Shown: positions 4,027-59,443 of the stretch, one piece after another | Layout: each line of letters starts with the position of its first letter | Position numbering within the stretch: position 1 is the stretch's first letter | NCBI GenBank assembly: GCA_000004695.1 | Contig: CM000153.2 | Location: 1,760,001-1,824,000, forward strand | DNA length: 64,000 nucleotides | Source: Dictyostelium discoideum | Lineage: Eukaryota | Direction of reading: 5' to 3' | The notes under the pieces: generated by a model | What the model was told of the DNA's origin: nothing | The model's database searches: none | What the model saw: only the letters and a program-made list of their open reading frames with translations | Translations under genes and position numbers: made by a program

Positions 4027-5295
4027 ATAAAAAAAAAAAAAAAAAAAAAAAAAGAAAAAAACAAAAAAAAAAACAAAAAAAAAAAAAAAATCAACCCATC
4101 GTAAAAATATCAATTAATTACAATAATAGTATAAAATACTTAATGGCGATTATTTAATAAATAACAATTCACTATTTTTTAGAATTAAAAGTGATTTTTT
4201 CAACTTTTAATAAAAAATTAAAATGATTGGTGTGCAGGTTTATTACTTTTTTTTTTTTTTTTTGACGGTGTGTTTTGGATTTTTTTTTTTTTCTTTTTAA
4301 GTTTTGTTTATAAAAAATTGTAAGGTGAAAATATCAATTTCGTTAGGTTTTTTTTTTTTATAGATTTTTCATTGCGCCTTTTTTTTTTTTTTTTAAACTT
4401 TGCCAAATTACAAGATTTTATTTTTTTTTTTTTTTAAAATTTTAGGAAACCCATTAATTATTGAACTCAATGAAACAATCATGATTTTAATCACAAATCA
4501 CTTTAAAATAAAATTTAGATTGAATACCTAACCCCTCATAATTTCATTCATTAATTCATTTTTTTTTTTTTTTTTTTTTTTTGAGGAGCCCGCCTTTTTT
4601 TAAAATTTTTTTTTTTTTTTGGGAGGGAAATTAGCAGTGTTTCAGATCTAAATATTGTATTGTTGGGTTGTTTATAATAATTTTTTTTTTACATCCAATC
4701 AATTCTTTAACTTGAGATCTCGAATGTTTATAATAGTTGTGTTTTTTTTTTTTATTTTAATTTTGTTTTGTTTTTTTTTTATTTTTTTTTTTTTATTTTT
4801 ATTTTGTTTTTTTTTTTTTTTTTTATTAATAATAATAATAAAAATAATAATGGGAGTTAAAGCGTGCAAACACCAAGTAGGGGGGGGTTTAAATTTAATG
4901 TTTTGCTATGTTGTTTATGAATTAATATGTTATGAATATTAGGGGTGATTAAAAATGGTTATAATACAATAAAAAAAAAAAAAAAAATTATAAAAAAATT
5001 AAAAAAAATTAAATTATTAATTTACAACATAATAGTACCCTATATTTGGGCTGTTTGTTGATGTAATGATAGTTTATTTTTTCTTTTCTTTTAATTATTT
5101 TTAATTAATATTTTTTTTTTTTAAAAAATAATTTTTTTTTTTTTTAATTTTTTTTTTTTTAAAAAAATAACATTTATTTTTAAGTTTACTTTAAATTTGT
5201 TTTTTTTTTTTTTAAAAAAAATATTATAAATAATAATCATAATAATATAATAATGGGGTGATTTAATCAATCAAAATACTTATATACTCCTCTCC

Positions 5296-5356
<61 letters not shown>

Positions 5357-6082
5357 CAACCAATGGTACCATTGTACCATATAAAAATAGGGTTTAAAAG
5401 ACTGCTAATTTAAGATGAATGTAGGTTAAACAATTCCCAGCGAATTAAGGTAACAATTTTTAATAATTATTCGAATTGGTTAAAAAAGGTGATTTAATTT
5501 TTTTTTTTTTTTTTTTATTCACTTTTTTTTTTTTTTTTTATTATTAAAAACTATTTTTTATTGATGAGAAAAATCTCCAATAAAGATGTCCTACCTTCAT
5601 ATTAATTTGAAAATGGTTTATCCTTTTTTGATGTTGGTAGATTTTATTTTTATTTTTATTATAATTTTTTTTTTTTTTTTTTTTTTTTCTTATTATTATT
5701 TTTATAAAGGATGGGGGTTTTATATAAGGTAATAATCAGCATGGAATAAAGGGTCCATCACTTATTCACACCCTTTTTCATTTACACATTTTACTTGATT
5801 TTTCACTTGTCAAAAGGCAAAACTATTTTTTTTTTCCAATTAATACACTCCATATAATTATTCTCAACTTTTTGTCAACCAAAAAGTTGACAACCAACTC
5901 AACAATATATAGTTTCATTCAATTTTGTTGATTGAATTAAATTTAATTAAATTAATAAATGTTTTTATAATTTTATTATTTAATTTTTAAAAAAAATTTT
6001 ATTTATTTATTTTTTATAAACAATTAATTCAAACTTTAATAATAATAATAATATCACACACACAACGGGGGTAAATTTGGCT

Positions 6083-6117
<35 letters not shown>

Positions 6118-7241
6118 GTTTTTCTAAACACTTTTTTATGTGCAACTCCTAGCAATTTCAGACAAGTAAATAATAGTTTTAAAACAATTTTTTTATTTTT
6201 TTACATAAAATCGACCATTTTATTTCTTTTATAATATATAAAGTAGCAATGTGAAAAAAAAAAAAAAAAAAAAAAAAAATAAATAAATTAATAAAACAAA
6301 TTAATTTTACCCCTTTTTTTATTTTATACAATTTTTTATTTTTTTACAAAATTTACTTATTTGATTGATGGTTATATAGCAATTTTTTTGTATTTTTAAT
6401 ATATCTGTGGGTTTAACCACTATAAAAAACCCACATTAAACCACTTAATTTCTACAAAAGTTAATTAAAATATTGTTTGTTTTTCAATGCCCATACACAT
6501 TTATCCGTTTTTGTTGAAAGTATGACGAAGCCAATAGATAAATCAAACAATAAGATTAAAAAATAAAATAAAAATAAAAAATAAAAACAAAATATAATAA
6601 AAAAAAAATAAAAAAAAGTAAATTATTAAACCATCAATATTAATTTTATTCCAATACACCACTAGGTGATAATAATTTATGGAAAAATTAATAAATAAAT
6701 AAATATTAAATATATAAATAAATAAATTAATAAGTAAAAATATAAATAATTACAATAAAAGTAAAATAAAAAAAGATTTATCAAATAATATCAATATACC
6801 TTACAAATTTAAATTAATAGTTTACATTATGTTAATTTGGTTTTATTTATATTGTTATTTATTATCCATTCAAAATTATTACATTCCAATTTAATTTTTT
6901 TTTTTTTTTTTTTTTTTTTGGTTTTTTTTTTTTTTTTTTTTTTCCTAAAAAAATAACAAAAATACTATCCAAATGCTCGGCTCTCAGCAATAATGGGTGG
7001 AATGAATGGTTTTTTAATTAAAATAAATTAAATTAAAATTAAAATAAATTAAAATTAAAAAAAAAAAAAAAAAAAAGAAACAATTTCTAATTGGTCGAAA
7101 GTAATTTATTTTAAATATATTTTTTTTAATTTTAATTAAATGGTATGGATATAGACAGTGGTAGTTTATTAAATACCACCATTTTTGTGTTATATATTAA
7201 AGTTTATTCAAATTAATTTTTTATTAAAAAATAAATAATAA

Positions 7242-7274
<33 letters not shown>

Positions 7275-8358
7275 AAATTAAAAATTAAATAAAAGCTACA
7301 GAAAAATAAATAACCAACTAAATTAAATTAAAAAACTTTTTTATTTGTTGTCGACATATTTCATTTCGTTGATGCAATAAAATTAAATTGTATATCTAGG
7401 ATTTGAATAAACTTTTTTTTTTTTTTTTTTTTTTTTTCCCAAAAAAATTTGGTTATAATAATATAGCCCAATAAAAAATAAAAAAAAACTAACCAATTAA
7501 ATTTAACTAAAATTTTAGGTTCATTTTATTATTATTATTATTTTTATTATTTTCTATCTTTAATGAATTGGTGGTAGTGAGTTTTTTTGAGATTTCGTTT
7601 ATATTTAACCAAGGAGATTTAAATTGACCCAATTAGATTTTCCCAAAAAAAAAAAATATTATTGTAATAATTTACCATTCACCACAAATTGTTAAAATGT
7701 AATTGAGAGTGTGAAATTGAAAAGGTGTGATACATTGAGATTTTAATTGTGGAAGTTAAAATCAAACACAAAATGTTAGTTCTTTAACTTTTTATTATAA
7801 TAATAAAATCAAAATCAAAATCAAAATCAAAAAACCAAAAAGAATTTGAAAGATTAATATGATGCAATCTCTTTATTTTTTGAGAATTCTGATTTTGTTT
7901 ACATAAATGGTAAGTTTTTTTTTTTTTTTTTTTTCAATTAACCATCAATTTTTTGTTGTAATTGTTTGTTTTTTTTTTTTTTTAATTATTTTAAGTGTCA
8001 ATTAATGGTGTTTAAATTATTGGTATTATATGTTTTTCTACAATAAATCATTGAAATTATAATAATTGTAGATGGGAATAAATCAATACTATCACTCTAT
8101 AAAAAATTTGAAGAAAAAAAAAATTGTAACACTGGGTGATAAAAAAAATAATTTGAATGAAATGTTGATAATTGCATTGAACTTTATTTTAATAATTTAA
8201 CTATAATAATGATTTTAATTTTTTTTTATGGGTAAAAAATGATTAATAATAATAAAAATAATTATTAAATACAAATTTCCCCAGTATTAGGGGTATTAAA
8301 TTGTATAAATTTGATTATAAGTTTTCTTTACCTTTTTTTTAAATTGCCAAATTCAATC

Positions 8359-17901: not shown

Positions 17902-20775
<2,874 letters not shown>

Positions 20776-39492: not shown

Positions 39493-41319
39493 TTATAATT
39501 CGGATTGAAGTTTTCTTAATTCTTCTAAAAACTTTTGTTCATTATTTATTTTTTCAATTGCAGTTGGTGGAATAAATTCTCCAGAATTTAATTTTTCTTT
39601 TAATACTTCAACCTCTTTGAGTTTTCTTTCAACATTTCTAATTTTCTTTTCAATTGGTGTTAGTTCTCTCTTTGGTTCATCTGCAGCTGGTTTTGTTGTG
39701 GTGGTGGTAGTATTGTTTGTTGTTGTTGTTGATGATGGTTTTTGTTTTGGTTTAAAAGTTGATGATGATTTGGCAGAAGCTAAATAAACTTTAAAACCAC
39801 TTGGAAGTGGAGCACCCATTGCAGGTGGTGAAGTTACAACTGGTGGAGCAGCTTGCATATTTCTAAGTGATGGTGGTGTATATTTTTGTGGTTGTGGTGA
39901 AGATTCTTTTTGTTGTTGTATACTTGGATAGACGATTCTTTCATTTGGGAAGACGAGTGGATTTAAAGGTCTCCAAGAGGCTTGATAAAGTTCAGGTATG
40001 TTTTCTTGATAGACGATAGTGTTATCGTATTTGATGATTTTAACACCATTGTCAACACGAATACGTGGTGAAAGGACAGCGGTCATAAAGTGAACGGAAT
40101 CAGCAGACCATTCAGTGTAAATGGCACAATGAGATTGAGTGCCACAAATTCTCTTGTAACGTGTTAAATCCCAAAAGTCCATATCACCTTGAAGATTACC
40201 AAAACCACCCAAACATAACAATTGACCATTTGGAGAGAAACGAATGGTGTTTCTTGGATTGAGACCAAAATCGACCAATGGTTCACCCTTTAAATTGAAA
40301 AGTGTAGTTTGTGATGGCATATTACCATAGCAAACCATGAATTGATCCAAAGTTGGGCTCCATTGAACGTCGTGAATTGGTCCTTTGATGTTGAGATTGA
40401 AACTACTACCATCTTGTGAGAGGAACCAAAGACCGGTTTCACCATAGTATGATTTACCCGATTTATCAGTGTCGGTGAATGTGTGGACAAGGATTGCGTT
40501 ACCCTTTTTATTCCACAATACCTTTGCTTCTGAAGCCTTGAAAAACTTCAAATGAGAGCAATATTCGTTGACAGTTGGATATGAGTAGATACGTGCTGAA
40601 CCTGGGGTGCTACCTTTCTCTGGTACAAAGGTTGCGATTTTGTATGGACCACCATTGGTAGCTGGTGCAAACTCGAATGAGGAGATGTCTTGTAATTTGA
40701 TCTTCTTTGCCAATACACCAATTGAACGACCATTGAAAAAGTGTACCTCGTTTGAGATCAATTTACCTGCCAATACTTCATCATCGGTCCACTTGATGAG
40801 TGGCCAATTCTCTTGGTTACAATATTTCTGTGAGGTTTTATAGAGGATGGAGGCCTGTTTGATATCCCACACAATGAGGTTGTTTTCATTGTTATTGTAT
40901 TCTGACATTCTCTCCCATGTTAAGAGGAAACTGTTTTGTGGTGAAAATGATATCATTCCAACATTTGGTCTATTGATTACAGAGTGAACTGATCCACCAT
41001 CACTATTGCAAATTACAATCTCATTCAAATTAACATATGCAATCAATGTACCATCCTTACTGTATTCAACATGACGACAATCTCCATTACTATATGATGG
41101 TAAATTTAAATTCTTTCCATATTGTTGCCCAATCTCTTGATATGCATTGGTTTTTGATCTAACTACAAATTGTAATTTTGGTGTAGTTAATGTTTCTGTT
41201 GTTGTTGTTGTTGTACTATTTGATGCTACTGATGTTAATGTTGGTGAGCTTTGTGATGGTGATGGTGATGTTGTAGTTGTAGTAGTAGTATTATTATTAT
41301 TATTATTTGGGGCACTCAT
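39493..41319 (-). CDS. eif2a: Eukaryotic translation initiation factor 2A (eIF2A), WD/beta-propeller protein
   Basis: Single 608-aa ORF. It has eIF2A-type propeller repeats (IRFSPNGQLLCLGGFGNLQGDMDFWDL, LWFLSQDGSSFNLNIKGPIHDVQWSP), a C-terminal charged coiled tail and a poly-T/N N-terminus. Confidence 0.8.
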   Translation of the reverse strand: MSAPNNNNNNTTTTTTTSPSPSQSSPTLTSVASNSTTTTTTETLTTPKLQFVVRSKTNAYQEIGQQYGKNLNLPSYSNGDCRHVEYSKDGTLIAYVNLNEIVICNSDGGSVHSVINRPNVGMISFSPQNSFLLTWERMSEYNNNENNLIVWDIKQASILYKTSQKYCNQENWPLIKWTDDEVLAGKLISNEVHFFNGRSIGVLAKKIKLQDISSFEFAPATNGGPYKIATFVPEKGSTPGSARIYSYPTVNEYCSHLKFFKASEAKVLWNKKGNAILVHTFTDTDKSGKSYYGETGLWFLSQDGSSFNLNIKGPIHDVQWSPTLDQFMVCYGNMPSQTTLFNLKGEPLVDFGLNPRNTIRFSPNGQLLCLGGFGNLQGDMDFWDLTRYKRICGTQSHCAIYTEWSADSVHFMTAVLSPRIRVDNGVKIIKYDNTIVYQENIPELYQASWRPLNPLVFPNERIVYPSIQQQKESSPQPQKYTPPSLRNMQAAPPVVTSPPAMGAPLPSGFKVYLASAKSSSTFKPKQKPSSTTTTNNTTTTTTKPAADEPKRELTPIEKKIRNVERKLKEVEVLKEKLNSGEFIPPTAIEKINNEQKFLEELRKLQSEL

Positions 41320-41421: not shown

Positions 41422-42328
41422 ATGTTTATTTGTATGTATTTATTTAAAATATAGTATTATTTTAAAATTGTTATTATTGTTGTTATTATTAATATTATTA
41501 TTATAAAATTAATTCTTTTTTTATTTTTCAAATATATGTAGAAATTATTACTATTTAAAATATTATTATTATTTTATTATTAGTTATTTATTATTTTATT
41601 ATTAGTTATTTATTATTTATTAATACTATGTGCGCTCTTACTACTCTCTCTCCTGTCTCACTCTTTATCGTTTTTCTATAACTGTGATCCCCTTTTGTGG
41701 TTTGCGATTTCACATATAAAAATTTAAAAAAAACTTTTTTTTTCAAAAAAAAAAATTTAAAAAAAAAAAAAAAAATAAAAAAAAATAAAAAAAATTTCAC
41801 AAAAAAAAAAAAATAAAAATAAAAATAAATAAATAAAAATAAAATAAATTAAAAAAAATTAAAATAAAATAATAAATTTAATTAAAATCACAGTGCTAAA
41901 ATAAAAACAATAAAGTGACGAATAGATTTGTCAAATAAAAATTTAATTTAATTAAAAATAATTTCCAAAAAAAAAAAAAAAAAAAAAATATTCAAGTGAT
42001 CGGTATTAAACAAGAAAAAAAAAAAAAATAAAAAAAAAATAATAATATTAAATTTAAATCTTGTTTTCTTTTAATTTTTTTTTTTTAGAAATCATAAAAA
42101 ATCCAATGTTTCTATTAATATTGAGATTGAAAATCATAATATATTCCAAGAGTGTCCAGTTTGTACCATTTGTTAAAGAGAATCAAATAGGAAAGTTTTT
42201 CATCTTCAGACAGTTCTTCATTGATCCAACAAATATTATGAATTTTTGATGTCATTATGTTCTATATGCGCATAATGGCATTTAAAGTTCTGAATAGTCA
42301 TATTTTCACATTTGATTAGAGACTGAAT

Positions 42329-42340
42329 GAGAATCGAACC
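42329..42340 (-). promoter_or_regulatory. External B box (exB), a downstream extra pol III B-box-like element typical of Dictyostelium tRNA genes
   Basis: The minus strand reads GGTTCGATTCTC, about 33 nt downstream of the tRNA 3' end. This matches the GGTTCGANTCC consensus. Dictyostelium tRNA genes commonly carry such an exB box (established knowledge). Confidence 0.5.
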
Positions 42341-42372
42341 TCCGACGATATATGGGTAGGCGAAAAAAATTT

Positions 42373-42445
42373 CGCCCAAAGGGGGGCTCGAACCCCCGAC
42401 CACAAGGTTAAAAGCCTTGCGCTCTACCGACTGAGCTATCTGGGC
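42373..42445 (-). tRNA. tRNA-Lys (anticodon UUU), 73 nt, no intron
   Basis: The minus strand reads GCCCAGATAGCTCAGTCGGTAGAGCGCAAGGCTTTTAACCTTGTGGTCGGGGGTTCGAGCCCCCCTTTGGGCG. It has a 7-bp acceptor stem with one G-U pair, D-loop AGCTCAGTCGGTAGAGC (A box), anticodon loop CTTTTAA (TTT) and T-loop GGTTCGAGCC (B box). An oligo-T terminator follows. Confidence 0.9.
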
Positions 42446-42478
42446 ATTTTTGAATTTTAAATTAAAAATAAACCCAAT

Positions 42479-42499
42479 AAAGAATAATTTTAACCAATT

Positions 42500-42533
<34 letters not shown>

Positions 42534-42581
42534 AAGAATAATTTTAAAAATTATAACAATAATAATAATAATAATAATAAT

Positions 42582-42614
<33 letters not shown>

Positions 42615-42627
42615 TAAGAATAACAAG

Positions 42628-42666
<39 letters not shown>

Positions 42667-43120
42667 AAACTCTCCTAGAACACACTCAAATTGAGTGATG
42701 TTATTAAAAAAAAAAAAAAAAGAATAATTTTAAACTACACTCTAACTTAGTGTGGACACACTTGGAATGTGGAGATTTTAAACCATCTACAAATTGCACT
42801 AATATCCAATTTAATAGCTATCATATTCGAAAAAATATGGCAAAAAAGAAACAAACTGATTCACGATGAAAAAGAAATAATAATTCATCATACGTGAACT
42901 AATTAAAACACAAAGAGCTGCATGGGACAGGACACAAGCGGTGATAAACAAAACATTAAGAATCAAATCAAAGCAACGACCAGAAGAATTAGACTCATTA
43001 ATCTCGCTAAAGCTATTACAATTTAGCAGACAATGGAACTCACCTCTTCACGCAATAGCACTTCCTAAACATCTCAAAAAATACAACAATTCACTCAGTA
43101 CTTTCTATAAATAAAAAAAA

Positions 43121-43171
<51 letters not shown>

Positions 43172-43625
43172 AAAAAAAAAAAAACCTGGGGACCCAAGTT
43201 AATCAGAAAATTTCCAGATTTATAACTTTTTAAAGTAAAATAAAAAAAATAGAAAGAAAACAAGTTGAAAATTACAAACAACACCACAAATATTAAGCAA
43301 CATAAATGCCTACATAAAATAAGCGAAATTGTGGATAAAACTCATATAAAAAAAAAACAATTCAAATATGTCATCAACATCAATCACGAACCAGACGATA
43401 AAATAAAAAAAGATTTAGAAAAATGTTTGGACAAAAAATATGTTTTAATCAAAAGTTATAATACAATTCAAAATTCGAAACAAAAAAAAAAAAAAAAAAA
43501 AAAAGTAAACTAACCCCTCTTTTAGAGACCCTGTAAAAAAACTAAAATAAAATGAGATCTAGCATCTCAAGGAGAAGCAACCAATAATTGCGTTATCCAA
43601 TTCAAAAAAAAAAGAATAATTTTAA
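42479..43625 (+). mobile_element. Cluster of 5'-truncated, poly(A)-terminated non-LTR retroelement fragments (TRE-type, tRNA-gene-targeted) flanked by four copies of the same 15-17-bp direct repeat
   Basis: (A)TAAAGAATAATTTTAA occurs at 42479-42493, 42533-42547, 42719-42733 and 43611-43625. Each interval between copies ends in an oligo(A) tract. The third interval (42736-43195) is a distinctly GC-richer, non-genomic-looking sequence ending in a roughly 80-nt A tract. The first copy lies about 35-50 bp upstream of the tRNA-Lys 5' end, which is the known TRE5 target distance. I did not verify the family (TRE5-A/B/C) by alignment. Confidence 0.5.
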
Positions 43626-43928
43626 AAAGAAAATGAATTTTTTATTTTAAAAAAACATTTTAAAAAACAAACTTTAATAAATTTAAGAATTTTCTTTACA
43701 AATTTTAATTTTAATGGAAAATTCTAAAAGACATTTTTTGGATTGGTTTCACCAAAAAAAAAACTGTTTTTGTTAGAGTTATCCTATTTTTAAATGGTCC
43801 GACTTATTCAAGAGAATACATTAGTCGAAATTAAGATATTTTTATTATATAAAAATAAAATAATTTTTTTTTTTTTTTTCCCATTCACTTTTTTATTTTT
43901 AATTTTTACTTTTATTATTTTCCTATAA

Positions 43929-44736
43929 ATGAATAAATTCTATAATTGTATTATATTTTTAATTATATATAAATTTATTTTTATAAGGTGTGTAGATGCA
44001 CAAACATCTACTTTGAAACAAACAGAATTTGATTGTATGGTTGCATTCCTAAATGTTTTTTCAAATGGAGTAACACCAGATTTAAATAGTACTGGTTTTT
44101 ATAATTTAAATAGAACTTCTACAATGGGTGTAAGAGCAAGTGAAATAAGGAATTTTGGAGTTTATCAATTGTAAGAAAATTATAATAAATATATATATTT
44201 AAATTTATAATTTTAATTAATTTCTTTCTCAAATTAATTTTAGGTTCATTAATCAAAACAACTACCCCAATTGATCTATCAATTTTCTCATGTTTAAAAT
44301 CTGCTATTTCAGTTTCATTTTATAATCTACACCTAGATTCAATTGGATCTGTGATTTCTTCATCTTCATTACCATCAACATTAATAATTCATTCTAATTC
44401 TGAATATGGTGTAACATTTGGAAAGATTAAACCTGGAATTTAAACTTTTTCTTTATATATAAGCAACAACCAACAGATCTTAATATTAATTTTTCGATGA
44501 TAAATACCACAACTACTTTGTAAGTTTTTTTTTTTTTTTTTTTTCATTTTTTTTTTTTTCTTTATTAATTATAGAAATCCCACTTTTGATTAATGATAAT
44601 AATTTTAAAATACACTTGTATAATGATCTTGGAAAAAATTGGTCACCAACTACTTGACAAATAGATACTTTTACTTCCCAAGGTTTAAAATGGTTAATAA
44701 ATTCTCCAAATCTTGAAATTAATTTGGTAAACCAGT

Positions 44737-44772
<36 letters not shown>

Positions 44773-46260
44773 ATTTATTATTATTCAAACTATTTTTTTA
44801 TTTTTCTTTTAAATAGGTAATTCCATCAATTCAATATTTAATGATAACATGGTTCACTTAAATGATTTTTTAAATTTTAATAATCCGCCCCCATGTAGTA
44901 AGTTAAAATTAAAAATAATAATTATTGTAATTTAATTATTTTTTACTAATTTTAAAAATTTTTTTAATTAATAGAAACGGTTGTTGCAAATATTATTAGA
45001 GAAGAAATAGATGCAAATAATTGGATGTTTTATATTTTTGGAGAAGATTTAGGTGGATCATTTGGCGGTGCAAGGATTTTACCAGATATAAATTATCCAA
45101 GTTTTTCAGTATCACTATCAATAAAAAATTTTAGTCTATATTCATTTAGAGTTTCTAAAACTGTAGATGTACCAGATATATTAATTTTAAATTATCCATA
45201 TAATAGCATTGGTAACTTTTCATTGTCATGGGAGACTATTAATCCACAAATTAATATTGTTGATTGGGTTGGTGATAATTTGGTATTTAGTGGTAGTTAT
45301 TTTGGATATAATACTACAATTATTGATATTGAAATTGATGGTAAGAAATGTTTAATTTCAAAATCAACATTTTATCAAATCAATTGTACAATAGCAAAAA
45401 ATTCATTACCATCAAATTCAGGTCATGTAACTCTTGTAACAGTTGGTGATTTATCAACTCAAATCACTTTAGTTTATTATCAAGTTAATGCAATTATTGA
45501 ATGTCCAAATGGTAGTAGTTGTAACTAAGAATATGGTAATGGTTATTGTGATACTAGTAAAGGTGTATGTTTATGTAATTTAGATTGGCAATCAAGTGAT
45601 TGTAGTATTCCATATAGAATTTGCCCATTAGGTTCAAGTGTAGATTCTTCAATAATCAAAAAACAAGTTATCAAATTTTAATTTATTCATTAGTTGAAAT
45701 TGATTATTATGGCAATCTAGTAATTAATTATTCATTAGAAAGTAATTGGGAAAAACCAATTGAAATAAATCAATCAATTTATCAATTCACTCAAACTATT
45801 CAAAATCAACAATGTACTATAAAATATACAATAGAAGAAGTTAAAGATTGGTTGTAATGATGAAAATACAGAAATTGATACAATTGGTGATGATGATAAC
45901 TCTTTAAATTATATTTCAATTAAAAAAGATTCAAAAGTTTTATATGGTAGATTCATTGATAGATTAATTCAGATGATAGATCCACATATATGTCATCAAT
46001 AATTAAATCAAAAAATAATGAATCAATAATTGTGGCTATGAATTTACCACATTTCATTAGATTATGTAAGATTGATCCTGATTTCTCTGTATTATTATCA
46101 ACAAACTTCAAATCATCATGTCCATCTGATAATGATGGTGATAAAAGATCTTAGTTAATTTCAGTGGCTGTAACTGTTCCAATTGTTTCTTGTAGTGCTT
46201 TAGCTGGTCTTTCAATTTTTATTTATAGAAAAAAAATGATTGAAGCACCTTTTTTAAAAA
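43929..46260 (+). pseudogene. Disrupted gene for a signal-peptide / IPT-TIG / EGF-like / single-TM cell-surface protein (tgr-family-like), probable pseudogene
   Basis: The N-terminal exon has a signal peptide (MNKFYNCIIFLIIYKFIFIRCVDAQ). There are several AT-rich introns between 44172 and 45000. An IPT/TIG-like region follows (IIDIEIDGKKCLISKSTFYQINCTIAKNSLPSNSGHVTLVTVGDLSTQITLVYYQ), then a Cys-rich EGF-like stretch (ECPNGSSCN*EYGNGYCDTSKGVCLCNLDWQSSDCS). The C-terminal TM plus basic tail (VAVTVPIVSCSALAGLSIFIYRKKMIEAPFLKKMKKLSKQ) is in another frame. In-frame stops (TAA at 45526-45528, others near 44450, 45680, 45995, 46155) and at least 3 frame changes lie in non-AT-rich sequence, so they are not introns. 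Confidence 0.4.
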
Positions 46261-46366
46261 AAATGAAAAAACTTTCCAAACAATAAATCATTTTTTTTTT
46301 TTTTTTTTTTTTTTTCTAAAATCTTGATAGAAATAATTTTTAGTTTACTTTTTTTTTAAAAATAAT

Positions 46367-46398
<32 letters not shown>

Positions 46399-46644
46399 TT
46401 TTTATTTTTAGAATTTAATTAATTATCATTCATTTTTTATATATAAAAAAAAAAAAAAAAATTTTTTTTGATTGGGTTGTGCAATTTTTTTCTAATAATA
46501 AAATTGAATTATAAAAAAAAAACTAATAAAAAATAAAGAATAAAAAAAAAAAAAGGAAAATCTTTATTGCTTTTTTTTTTTTTATATTTTTTTTTATATT
46601 TTTTTTTTTTTAATATTTTTTTTTCATTCGTCCCACAAAAACAA

Positions 46645-46676
<32 letters not shown>

Positions 46677-46776
46677 CATTATAGCATTTATTATAAAATA
46701 TAAATTATATATATTTATATATTATATATTTGTATAATATATATATATTTATATATTTATATATTTATTATATAAA

Positions 46777-47566
46777 ATGTTTTTTAATAAACTCTTTGGT
46801 GGTAATAGTACACCAACAGAAAACACCAACACACAAACAACAACAACAACAAATGTAAATAATGGTAATAATAACAATAACAACAATAGTGGTGAAAGTA
46901 GTAGATTCTCTTCATTTGGGTTTAATAAAATAACAGTGTCTGCTGAATCATTTAAAAAATTTGGATGTAAGTATACTTTATAGTTTTCAAAATAAAAAAA
47001 AAAATAAAAAAATAAAATAAAATAAAAGATTTTTAATTATATGATTGATTTATTTAGCATCAGTTCAATCATTTGCAAGTAACGTTTATCAAAAGATTGA
47101 AGAAGAAACCAAAAAACTTGTTGAAGAAGGACCAAATACATATTCAGATTGTTCAATGATGCCACCATGGATGGATTTTCAATTAGAGGATAAATCAAAA
47201 CAAACTGAGATTAGAGAGAAACTATTAGATGTAAAAATGAGTAGATCAACATTTTTACAATCACCACCAATTGATGCTGATTATTTTCAAGAGTTTGATG
47301 ATTATTTGGTTAAAATTGCAACTGTTTCTTTAAAATATGATCCAATTTTACAAAAGATTAGATTTCATTTCGTACCTAAATTGTATGTTTCAAAAAAAAA
47401 TACAAAAAAATACACTTAAAATACTAATTTATTAAATTTATTAAATTTAGGATATCAGAAGAACAATTCTGGAAGAATTGGTATTACAGGATTACTTTAC
47501 TTAAAAAACAATATAATATAACAACAAGTACAAATGATATAAAACCAAATAAAGATGAAAAAGAAG

Positions 47567-47614
<48 letters not shown>

Positions 47615-48148
47615 GTAACAACAGCAGCAATAATAATAATAGTAATAATAGTACTAATAAAGAATCATCACCATCACAAGATGAAACTGATATTGGTAAA
47701 TGGGAAAAAGAATTACAATCTGAATTAGACAATTTCGATATAAATGATGTTGTTGATGATGAAGGTAATATTGACTTCTCTTTAAATAATCATTTATTAA
47801 ATGATAATGATGATGATGAAGATTGGGAATCAAAAATAAATTTAGAATTACAACAACAACAGCAACAACAACCATCATCATTAATACAAAAACAAATATC
47901 AAAACAATCATCAACTACATTTTCATCACCAACGATTTCAACAACATTTTCATCACCAGTAACTGATAGTGATGTAGATTTAGAAATTGAAAAAGAATTA
48001 CAAAGAATGTCACAATCAAATATCGTTGATAAAAGTACAACTGATGAATTAATTGAAGAGATTGAAAGTGAAATTCAATTAGCTCAAAAAGATGGTTTAA
48101 TTTTAAATAATATTTTAGATGAAAATTATAGTAACAATAATAATAATG

Positions 48149-48187
<39 letters not shown>

Positions 48188-48384
48188 TTCAGGTATCTGA
48201 AAATGTTTTAGATGATGATGATATAAACAATTGTAGTAATATTGAAATTAATAATAGTAGTATAGAAATTAATGATGATTATAATAACCAAAATAAAATA
48301 ATTAACAATAATGGTGAAGGTGATATTGGTGGTTTAGAGGAAGAAATGGATCAAGTGAGTGGAAATAATTACGAATCTATCTAA
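46777..48384 (+). CDS. BSD-domain protein (SYAP1-like), 3 exons: 46777..46966, 47058..47382, 47451..48384
   Basis: Splicing (GTAAGT phase 1; GTATGT phase 2) gives ...ILQKIRFHFVPKL|ISEEQFWKNWYYRITLLKKQ. This contains the BSD-domain signature hydrophobic-FW-x-YF motif. Poly-N, poly-D and poly-Q low-complexity sequence follows in one continuous frame to 48384. Confidence 0.55.

Positions 48385-53904: not shown

Positions 53905-59443
<5,539 letters not shown>

Follow-up and report, generated by a model that had tools for sequence, protein, structure and literature searches.

A stretch of 64,000 nucleotides from Dictyostelium discoideum AX4 (assembly GCA_000004695.1, contig CM000153.2, positions 1,760,001 to 1,824,000 of the forward strand; the whole stretch is called the window below, and positions are window positions unless another locus is named) holds what looks like the wreck of a cell-surface gene, and raises the question of which protein family this gene came from and whether it can still be expressed as a receptor. 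An original prediction, made from the letters alone, had read it as a frameshifted member of the tgr kin-recognition family at 43929-46260, with a signal peptide, an IPT/TIG-type beta-sandwich, a Cys-rich EGF-like module and a C-terminal transmembrane (TM) segment followed by a basic tail. There is indeed a broken gene here, and the + strand carries every part described, from the signal peptide through the beta-sandwich and the EGF-like module to the TM segment with its basic tail. The predicted start is correct and the predicted end is not, the natural stop being the TAA at 46284-46286. The segment 43929-46286 (+) is very probably a non-processed pseudogene of the ComC-like family in AX4.

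Family and structure of the broken gene

We ran Pfam on a conceptually repaired translation of the gene, which is 694 amino acids long. The strongest domain was ComC_SSD (PF22933), located just before the TM segment with an E-value of 1.4e-31 and 110 bits against a cutoff of 24; the match is split in two stretches because 56 codons have been deleted from the gene. Upstream of it, Beta-sand_ComC_2nd (PF24143) was matched over profile positions 1-78 of 87 (E-value 1.9e-7, 31.9 bits against a cutoff of 27). A TIG match was also obtained, at 20.9 bits, which is exactly the cutoff, and it covers the same residues as the stronger ComC beta-sandwich, so the region that had been called IPT/TIG is the second beta-sandwich of ComC. 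LRR_ComC (PF24141) was not matched by Pfam in the repaired AX4 translation. It is present in the syntenic copy of 'D. cf. discoideum' GCA_054859205.1 and in the family members P0002 and P0162, and its absence from the AX4 copy is a lesion, not a family difference. No EGF family was matched at E<=1 in the repaired AX4 sequence, in which one six-Cys module can be seen by eye.

The relatives of the gene point the same way. A phmmer search with a full-length homolog from D. citrinum (P0002, 1048 amino acids) returned 663 representatives of clusters formed at 50% identity with E<=1e-3 (168 of them with E<=1e-30), and the best 150 of these 663 were compared. All the top relatives carry ComC_SSD, and full-length members combine LRR_ComC, two ComC beta-sandwiches, EGF modules, one TIG, ComC_SSD and a TM segment. 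The named members that we looked up in 20 clusters, from D. discoideum AX4 (DDB_G0280511 = Q54V92, DDB_G0280117 = Q54VV3, and Q54ID8), D. purpureum and D. firmibasis, are all called 'EGF-like domain-containing protein', and none is a tgr or 'tiger' protein. By far the best relative among these 150 is ACTFIU_001218 (P0014) of D. citrinum, whose locus tag is two away from that of the D. citrinum eIF2A gene, ACTFIU_001216. After it, identity drops to ~30-36%, and AX4 members were seen only in such distant clusters. Since the AX4 paralogs seen are only ~30-35% identical, the broken AX4 copy represents an orthogroup that AX4 has lost. No close functional AX4 paralog was seen among the best 150, and one hidden below the resolution of the 50% clustering is unlikely. 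Word-indexed protein searches were of little help: the repaired translation gave only two relevant matches, the D. citrinum ortholog added two more among plant LRR kinases, and a 184-amino-acid open reading frame (ORF) from the gene gave nothing, as AT-rich low-complexity words swamp the candidates. The structure predicted for the 184-amino-acid ORF from a five-sequence alignment was too poor for use (mean predicted local distance difference test score, pLDDT, 40.6).

The D. citrinum ortholog lies in the same position next to eIF2A and tRNA-Lys, and the sequence that separates the tRNA from the gene has also been conserved in the two species. The public D. citrinum models of 2443 and 2476 amino acids (ACTFIU_001218 and ACTFIV_003822) fuse two tandem genes. 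Gene 1, the ortholog, corresponds to residues 1 to ~1256 of the fused P0014 model; it measures ~1270 amino acids, is apparently intact, which sets it apart from the AX4 copy, and has a paralogous gene 2 behind it. At locus L006, which comes from the other assembly of this species, gene 1 has its own TM segment, and its large exon, open save for one AT-rich intron, ends in its own stop, with a cytoplasmic tail, IYRKKMIEAPFLKKMKKLSKQ* (asterisks mark stops), that is identical to the AX4 tail. Its domains follow the order of the ComC-like family (PF24141, PF24142/PF24143, PF22933): Pfam finds an LRR (a match to the generic LRR_1 only), several EGF modules (EGF_2, EGF_TEN and EGF_Teneurin), one TIG, and ComC_SSD over profile positions 3-222 of 222 (E-value 4.7e-72). 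In AX4, ComC_SSD and the second beta-sandwich are still recognisable, as are, by eye, one EGF-like module, the one C-terminal TM segment and the short basic tail. The AX4 gene itself is dead: deletions have taken its LRR region, most of its EGF modules, its TIG and the core of the supersandwich, and what is left is interrupted by stops and frameshifts. In the D. citrinum tandem (L006 1-8282, and P0014/P0160), gene 1 and gene 2 are identical over long stretches, for example FYGWFGNIHVNL...GGADCSSITNNN and the C-terminal part of the supersandwich, which suggests recent gene conversion. We also considered that the AX4 copy was a chimera of the two genes produced by unequal crossover, and rejected this, as the supersandwich and tail of AX4 match gene 1 and not gene 2.

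In a three-frame translation of 43900-46320, the ATG at 43929 opens a hydrophobic, signal-like N-terminus (MNKFYNCIIFLIIYKFIFIRCVDAQ); the beta-sandwich ORF (44977-45525) lies in a 184-codon open block at 44974-45525; the six cysteines of the EGF-like module are found in CPNGSSCN*EYGNGYCDTSKGVCLCNLDWQSSDC; and the TM segment with its basic tail reads LISVAVTVPIVSCSALAGLSIFIYRKKMIEAPFLKKMKKLSKQ*, that is, a hydrophobic segment, then RKKMIEAPFLKKMKKLSKQ, then the TAA at 46284-46286. The signal peptide, the single C-terminal TM segment and the short basic tail were all recognised from the translation by inspection. The pieces of the gene are spread across all three forward frames, in agreement with the prediction of at least three frames with in-frame stops. 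The damage amounts to four premature stops (TAA 44441, TGA 44655, TAA 45526 and TAG 46152), at least three small frameshifts, one out-of-frame intron join and three large deletions. These deletions, of ~200, 344 and 56 codons, all shift the frame and leave the gene ~600 codons short; the earlier description had missed them and so under-counted the damage. In the alignment to the D. citrinum ortholog each stop has taken the place of a conserved codon flanked by conserved residues, and, block by block, what survives of the gene shows 73-89% identity to the D. citrinum protein. The introns have been retained at their ancestral positions, and two of them (44171-44243 and 44898-44974) splice in frame as they do in the ortholog.

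The 5′ half of the gene begins with an intact, stop-free exon 1 (43929-44170), which carries the start codon and the signal-peptide-like N-terminus together with the beginning of the N-terminal domain, and is 77% identical to residues 1-80 of the D. citrinum protein. Intron 1 (44171-44243, GTAAG...TTTTAG, 73 bp, 8% GC) is removed to give VYQL|FINQ, as in the ortholog. Exon 2 (44244-44519) bears three lesions, recognised from the DNA alignment with GCA_054859205.1 and from a tblastn comparison with the ortholog, which passes from frame 2 to frame 1: a 2-bp deletion after 44256, the TAA at 44441-44443, where D. citrinum has a Thr and GCA_054859205.1 a Ser, and a 1-bp deletion near 44463. From the sequence and its frames, the canonical join of intron 2 (44520-44574, GTAAGT...TATAG, 55 bp, 9% GC) is one base out of frame because, by its coordinates, its length of 55 is 1 modulo 3 and the frame change would need 2 modulo 3. 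What remains of exon 3 (44574-44726) corresponds to ortholog residues 181-231 at 73% amino acid identity and contains the in-frame TGA at 44655-44657, so that SPTSFKID reads SPTT*QID. It is followed by an AT-rich, intron-like segment (44727-44816, GTAAAC...AAATAG, 90 bp, 9% GC) and by the junction of deletion 1 (44817-44897), where, on comparing the frame translations with the ortholog, a SIQYLMI remnant is joined to ...NFNNPPPC in another frame. This deletion removes ortholog residues ~236-442, including the LRR_ComC region; the LRR part is retained in GCA_054859205.1.

Downstream of a further intron (44898-44974, GTAAGT...TAATAG, 77 bp), whose join is in frame and whose flanking frames agree with the ortholog, the longest preserved block (44975-45554) covers the region of the first and second ComC beta-sandwiches and the first EGF-like module, with 80% amino acid identity to ortholog residues 443-666 and 93% DNA identity to GCA_054859205.1. 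The TAA at 45526-45528, a Tyr codon in the ortholog, splits the six-Cys EGF-like module of this block. By alignment to the ortholog and to GCA_054859205.1, the rest of the module (45555-45650) runs up to the junction of deletion 2 at ~45647. This deletion takes away residues 667-1010, that is, five EGF modules, the family's only canonical TIG and one more EGF; it shifts the frame, and a 3-bp AAT microhomology is found at its junction. The first part of the ComC supersandwich (45651-45848, ortholog residues 1011-1076, 89% amino acid identity, recognised by Pfam as ComC_SSD) ends at deletion 3 (junction at 45849-45852 in the alignments), where 173 bp corresponding to residues 1077-1132, the supersandwich core, are gone and the frame is shifted. 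The last piece (45853-46286) contains the remainder of the supersandwich, the TM segment and the basic tail at 78-86% amino acid identity, with a 1-bp deletion at ~45967 seen in the DNA alignment and the TAG at 46152-46154, where the D. citrinum ortholog has a Trp. In this state no receptor would be made from the segment, and a short N-terminal peptide would be the most that it yields; the present AX4 sequence is a functionless record of gene death.

Fate of the gene in related genomes

The order eIF2A, tRNA-Lys(UUU), gene, BSD-domain gene is conserved across the loci that we compared, and the gene already stood between tRNA-Lys(UUU) and the BSD-domain gene in the ancestor that D. citrinum shares with the D. 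discoideum clade. The original prediction had considered strain-specific pseudogenisation plausible and had proposed to compare the locus across wild isolates. The comparison bears this out only in part: the lesions do differ by lineage, and the gene is differently broken, reduced to a stump or absent, and an intact allele was found in none of the five discoideum-clade assemblies; the copy that is apparently intact is that of D. citrinum. In GCA_054859205.1 (locus L001) the syntenic gene is dead by entirely different lesions: stops at LII*FY, SSS*LPS, YP*NN, DTF*M and DDR*T, deletions of ortholog residues ~176-232, 412-472 and 640-770, and a frameshift in the tail. This copy keeps the LRR, EGF-TIG-EGF and supersandwich parts that have been lost in AX4. 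The wild D. discoideum GCA_054859385.1 (L005) retains only a ~145-bp degenerate remnant of the 3′ part (L005 2607-2750). In another D. discoideum, GCA_054859355.1 (L004), ~150 bp replace window positions 42475-46586 and no trace of the gene is left there, and none was found at the syntenic locus of 'cf. discoideum' GCA_054859235.1 (L008) or of D. firmibasis (L007). The segment is dispensable in nature, since it has been deleted in two wild D. discoideum and in one cf. discoideum assembly.

AX4 and GCA_054859205.1 do not have a single lesion in common, so their common ancestor probably still had an unbroken gene, and several independent deaths and deletions would have followed. The ratios of nonsynonymous to synonymous substitution (dN/dS, Nei-Gojobori) were 0.31 between AX4 and D. 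citrinum, 0.28 between GCA_054859205.1 and D. citrinum, and 0.51 between AX4 and GCA_054859205.1. When these were split among the branches by three-taxon arithmetic on 498 shared codons, rough values of ~0.86 for AX4, 0.32 for GCA_054859205.1 and 0.20 for D. citrinum plus the stem were obtained, which fit relaxed constraint on the AX4 branch. The gene has the marks of a unitary pseudogene (non-processed and orthologous, as GULO in primates): its introns are retained, the sister species has a syntenic, apparently intact ortholog, no close functional copy was seen among the best 150 relatives, and related lineages carry independent lesions. Compared with other unitary pseudogenes there is nothing unusual about it, and the locus has also been fully deleted in some isolates. 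It is a pseudogene of an ordinary kind, and the pattern across species is tidy rather than surprising.

Alternative readings of the locus

The family to which the gene had first been assigned deserves consideration, because several features recommend it. The tgr proteins consist of a signal peptide, TIG/E-set repeats and a TM segment (PMC12745789 and a second recent tgr paper), and with 38 genes and 26 pseudogenes, or ~63 members, in AX4 (PMC12745789), the family is large and rich in pseudogenes. Like the gene in the window, TgrB1, TgrC1 and the other members of subfamilies tgrA-tgrT are type-I surface proteins with an Ig-like beta-sandwich, in a large family with many pseudogenes that evolves by birth and death. 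A surface-protein pseudogene with a signal peptide, a TM segment, an Ig-like beta-sandwich and a TIG score equal to the Pfam cutoff could be expected of a dead tgr gene. However, that TIG match overlaps a better match to the ComC beta-sandwich, and the strongest domain of all is ComC_SSD. The ectodomain of tgr proteins is described as a series of IPT/TIG or Ig E-set domains, whereas the intact ortholog has an LRR, several EGF modules, the ComC supersandwich and a single TIG, and the AX4 copy shows no such repeats. Nor is the gene placed as tgr genes commonly, though not universally, are, in a cluster or head-to-head pair: it is a single copy between tRNA-Lys and the BSD-domain gene, with no other family member nearby in head-to-head orientation. 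None of the named relatives in the 20 clusters is a tgr protein either. The prediction had itself named best matches to a non-tgr family as the finding that would speak against it, and such matches are what the searches returned. By its domain architecture and best matches, set against the published descriptions of tgr proteins, the gene is to be classed as ComC-like and not tgr, and a pseudogenised TgrB1/TgrC1-type gene is highly improbable.

Other readings accept the family and dispute the death of the gene. One holds that the gene is functional and that what looks broken comes from errors of sequencing or assembly, or from unusual introns; homopolymer runs of Dictyostelium are indeed error-prone, and in the assembly GCA_054883475.1, which is probably the AX2-214 assembly of PMC12745789, an annotation pipeline called products of 136 and 358 amino acids from the locus. 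Against window positions 42000-47500, however, this second assembly has no mismatches and five length differences, all in long A/T runs that are intergenic or intronic and lie outside the coding blocks (its eIF2A gene is also identical to that of the window). As the two assemblies agree base for base in the coding blocks, we discarded sequencing error. Introns had already been judged impossible in the original prediction, and rightly so. The coding blocks, stops included, have 20-27% GC and are richer in GC than the real introns of the gene, which have 8-9% (the window as a whole has ~20%), and an exhaustive search for GT-AG spliced ORFs from the ATG to the terminal stop found none with introns of <=13%, <=15%, <=18% or <=22% GC. 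Spliced read-through ended at 44274-44443 with introns of <=18% GC and at 45528 with introns of <=22% GC, and a spliced path exists only if absurd 'introns' are set end to end, with no more than 60 coding bases left over; cryptic introns were therefore rejected as well. Four nonsense codons at conserved positions and the loss of ~600 codons, including the supersandwich core, also speak against a working gene, for which the pipeline managed only two fragments, and we regard its survival as extremely unlikely. It could also be argued that the receptor is dead and that the locus is still used, through a small N-terminal peptide that is secreted or through a transcript with a regulatory role. Indeed, the promoter-proximal region is intact, as are the ATG with its signal peptide and both exon 1 and intron 1, and the 5′ flank (43755-43921) is conserved with GCA_054859205.1 and D. 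citrinum. Yet the frame ends ~13 codons past the spliced intron 1, because of the 2-bp deletion after 44256, dN/dS on the AX4 branch is near 1, and whole-segment deletions occur in the wild, so that such a use is very unlikely.

We thus retain the reading of the segment as a dead, unitary ComC-like gene, and four points weigh against it. The unitary status depends on the best 150 of the 663 cluster representatives. The D. citrinum copy is intact in appearance, and for its small 5′ exons this was judged from the public gene model rather than exon by exon. Residual transcription or a short N-terminal product may persist in AX4. Finally, the branch values of dN/dS are rough, coming from ~500 codons without confidence intervals or a codon model.

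The tRNA-Lys interval and the turnover of ComC-like genes

The pseudogene had been placed next to a tRNA and retroelement locus, and it is. The tRNA-Lys(UUU) gene (42372-42446, - strand, ARAGORN), a conserved landmark between eIF2A and the pseudogene that is syntenic in 7/7 related loci, is 1.5 kb upstream of the pseudogene ATG. Beyond it lies eIF2A (39496-41319, - strand), an intronless ORF of 608 residues that is 100% identical to XP_638688.1/Q54PV7 of D. discoideum AX4 by protein comparison, which places the window in AX4 or in a laboratory genome that cannot be told from it. Locus comparison revealed, upstream of the tRNA and between it and the pseudogene, a ~500-bp insert (42670-43185, + strand) that ends in a long poly(A) tract of ~80 nt (43107-43185). 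The insert is present only in the AX4 window and in GCA_054883475.1 and has no counterpart in the five related loci L001, L004, L005, L006 and L008; it is probably a 5′-truncated fragment of a tRNA-targeted non-LTR (non-long terminal repeat) retroelement of the TRE type.

The ancestral gene would have encoded a type-I membrane protein with a signal peptide, an N-terminal/LRR_ComC region, beta-sandwiches, EGF modules, one TIG, a supersandwich, a TM segment and a short basic tail. ComC acts in developmental cell communication, and the ancestral protein was most likely a surface protein of the same sort, used during development in adhesion or signalling. Its death in AX4 would be one event in the turnover of a family whose genes are duplicated, converted, left to decay and deleted. 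Tentatively, the 4 kb that separate tRNA-Lys(UUU) from the BSD-domain gene could be a small hotspot of gene turnover, in which the tRNA draws in retroelements (the poly(A)-ended insert in AX4/AX2, an LTR element beside the stump in L005), their insertions promote the deletion of ComC-like genes, and the family evolves as tgr does, by birth and death, gene conversion and presence/absence differences; this idea is somewhat less likely to be right than wrong. To our knowledge, the turnover of the ComC-like family has not been studied in that light.

Taken alone, the pseudogene carries little weight, beyond the correction of its family from tgr to ComC-like. It illustrates cleanly how a single orthologous gene for a surface protein has decayed independently in near relatives among the social amoebae, and its states (intact, differently broken, stump and absent) suggest that a second large family of surface receptors may turn over as fast as tgr, which would matter for studies of gene content in recognition and adhesion in Dictyostelium. 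The only angle that appears novel, and mildly so, is that of a second large surface-protein family undergoing birth and death beside a tRNA gene that attracts retroelements. There are also consequences for annotation. The two 'hypothetical proteins' of the recent D. discoideum assembly GCA_054883475.1, of 358 and 136 amino acids (positions 5070-6507 and 6907-7421 of its locus, L003), are pseudogene fragments, the longer one carrying Beta-sand_ComC_2nd and ComC_SSD, and likely artefacts of annotation. The D. citrinum models of more than 2400 amino acids are each two genes fused by annotation.

Several minor observations were made around the locus. In the 64-kb window, tblastn with two family proteins detected no further family members, barring weak matches of 21-29% identity at 840-1508, 17995-18699, 47569-48204 and 54694-56361, which look driven by the composition of Asn/Ser/Thr/Gln-rich coding repeats and were rejected as candidates. 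In GCA_054859385.1, a gag-pol LTR retrotransposon of 1499 amino acids (L005 3076-8385), with zf-CCHC, protease, reverse transcriptase, RNase H and integrase domains, adjoins tRNA-Lys exactly at the reduced gene. In D. firmibasis the tRNA-Lys(UUU) (L007 8683-8757) is inverted relative to eIF2A, unlike in every other locus. In the window, the stretch that separates the tRNA from the pseudogene also contains a second short A-run and an 82-codon, Lys/Asn-rich ORF (43265-43513 and 43480-43505). Part of this spacer (43150-43619) is shared with GCA_054859205.1 at 89% identity and another part (43536-43633) is conserved with D. citrinum at 82%, and it may be an old spacer or the remnant of an older element.

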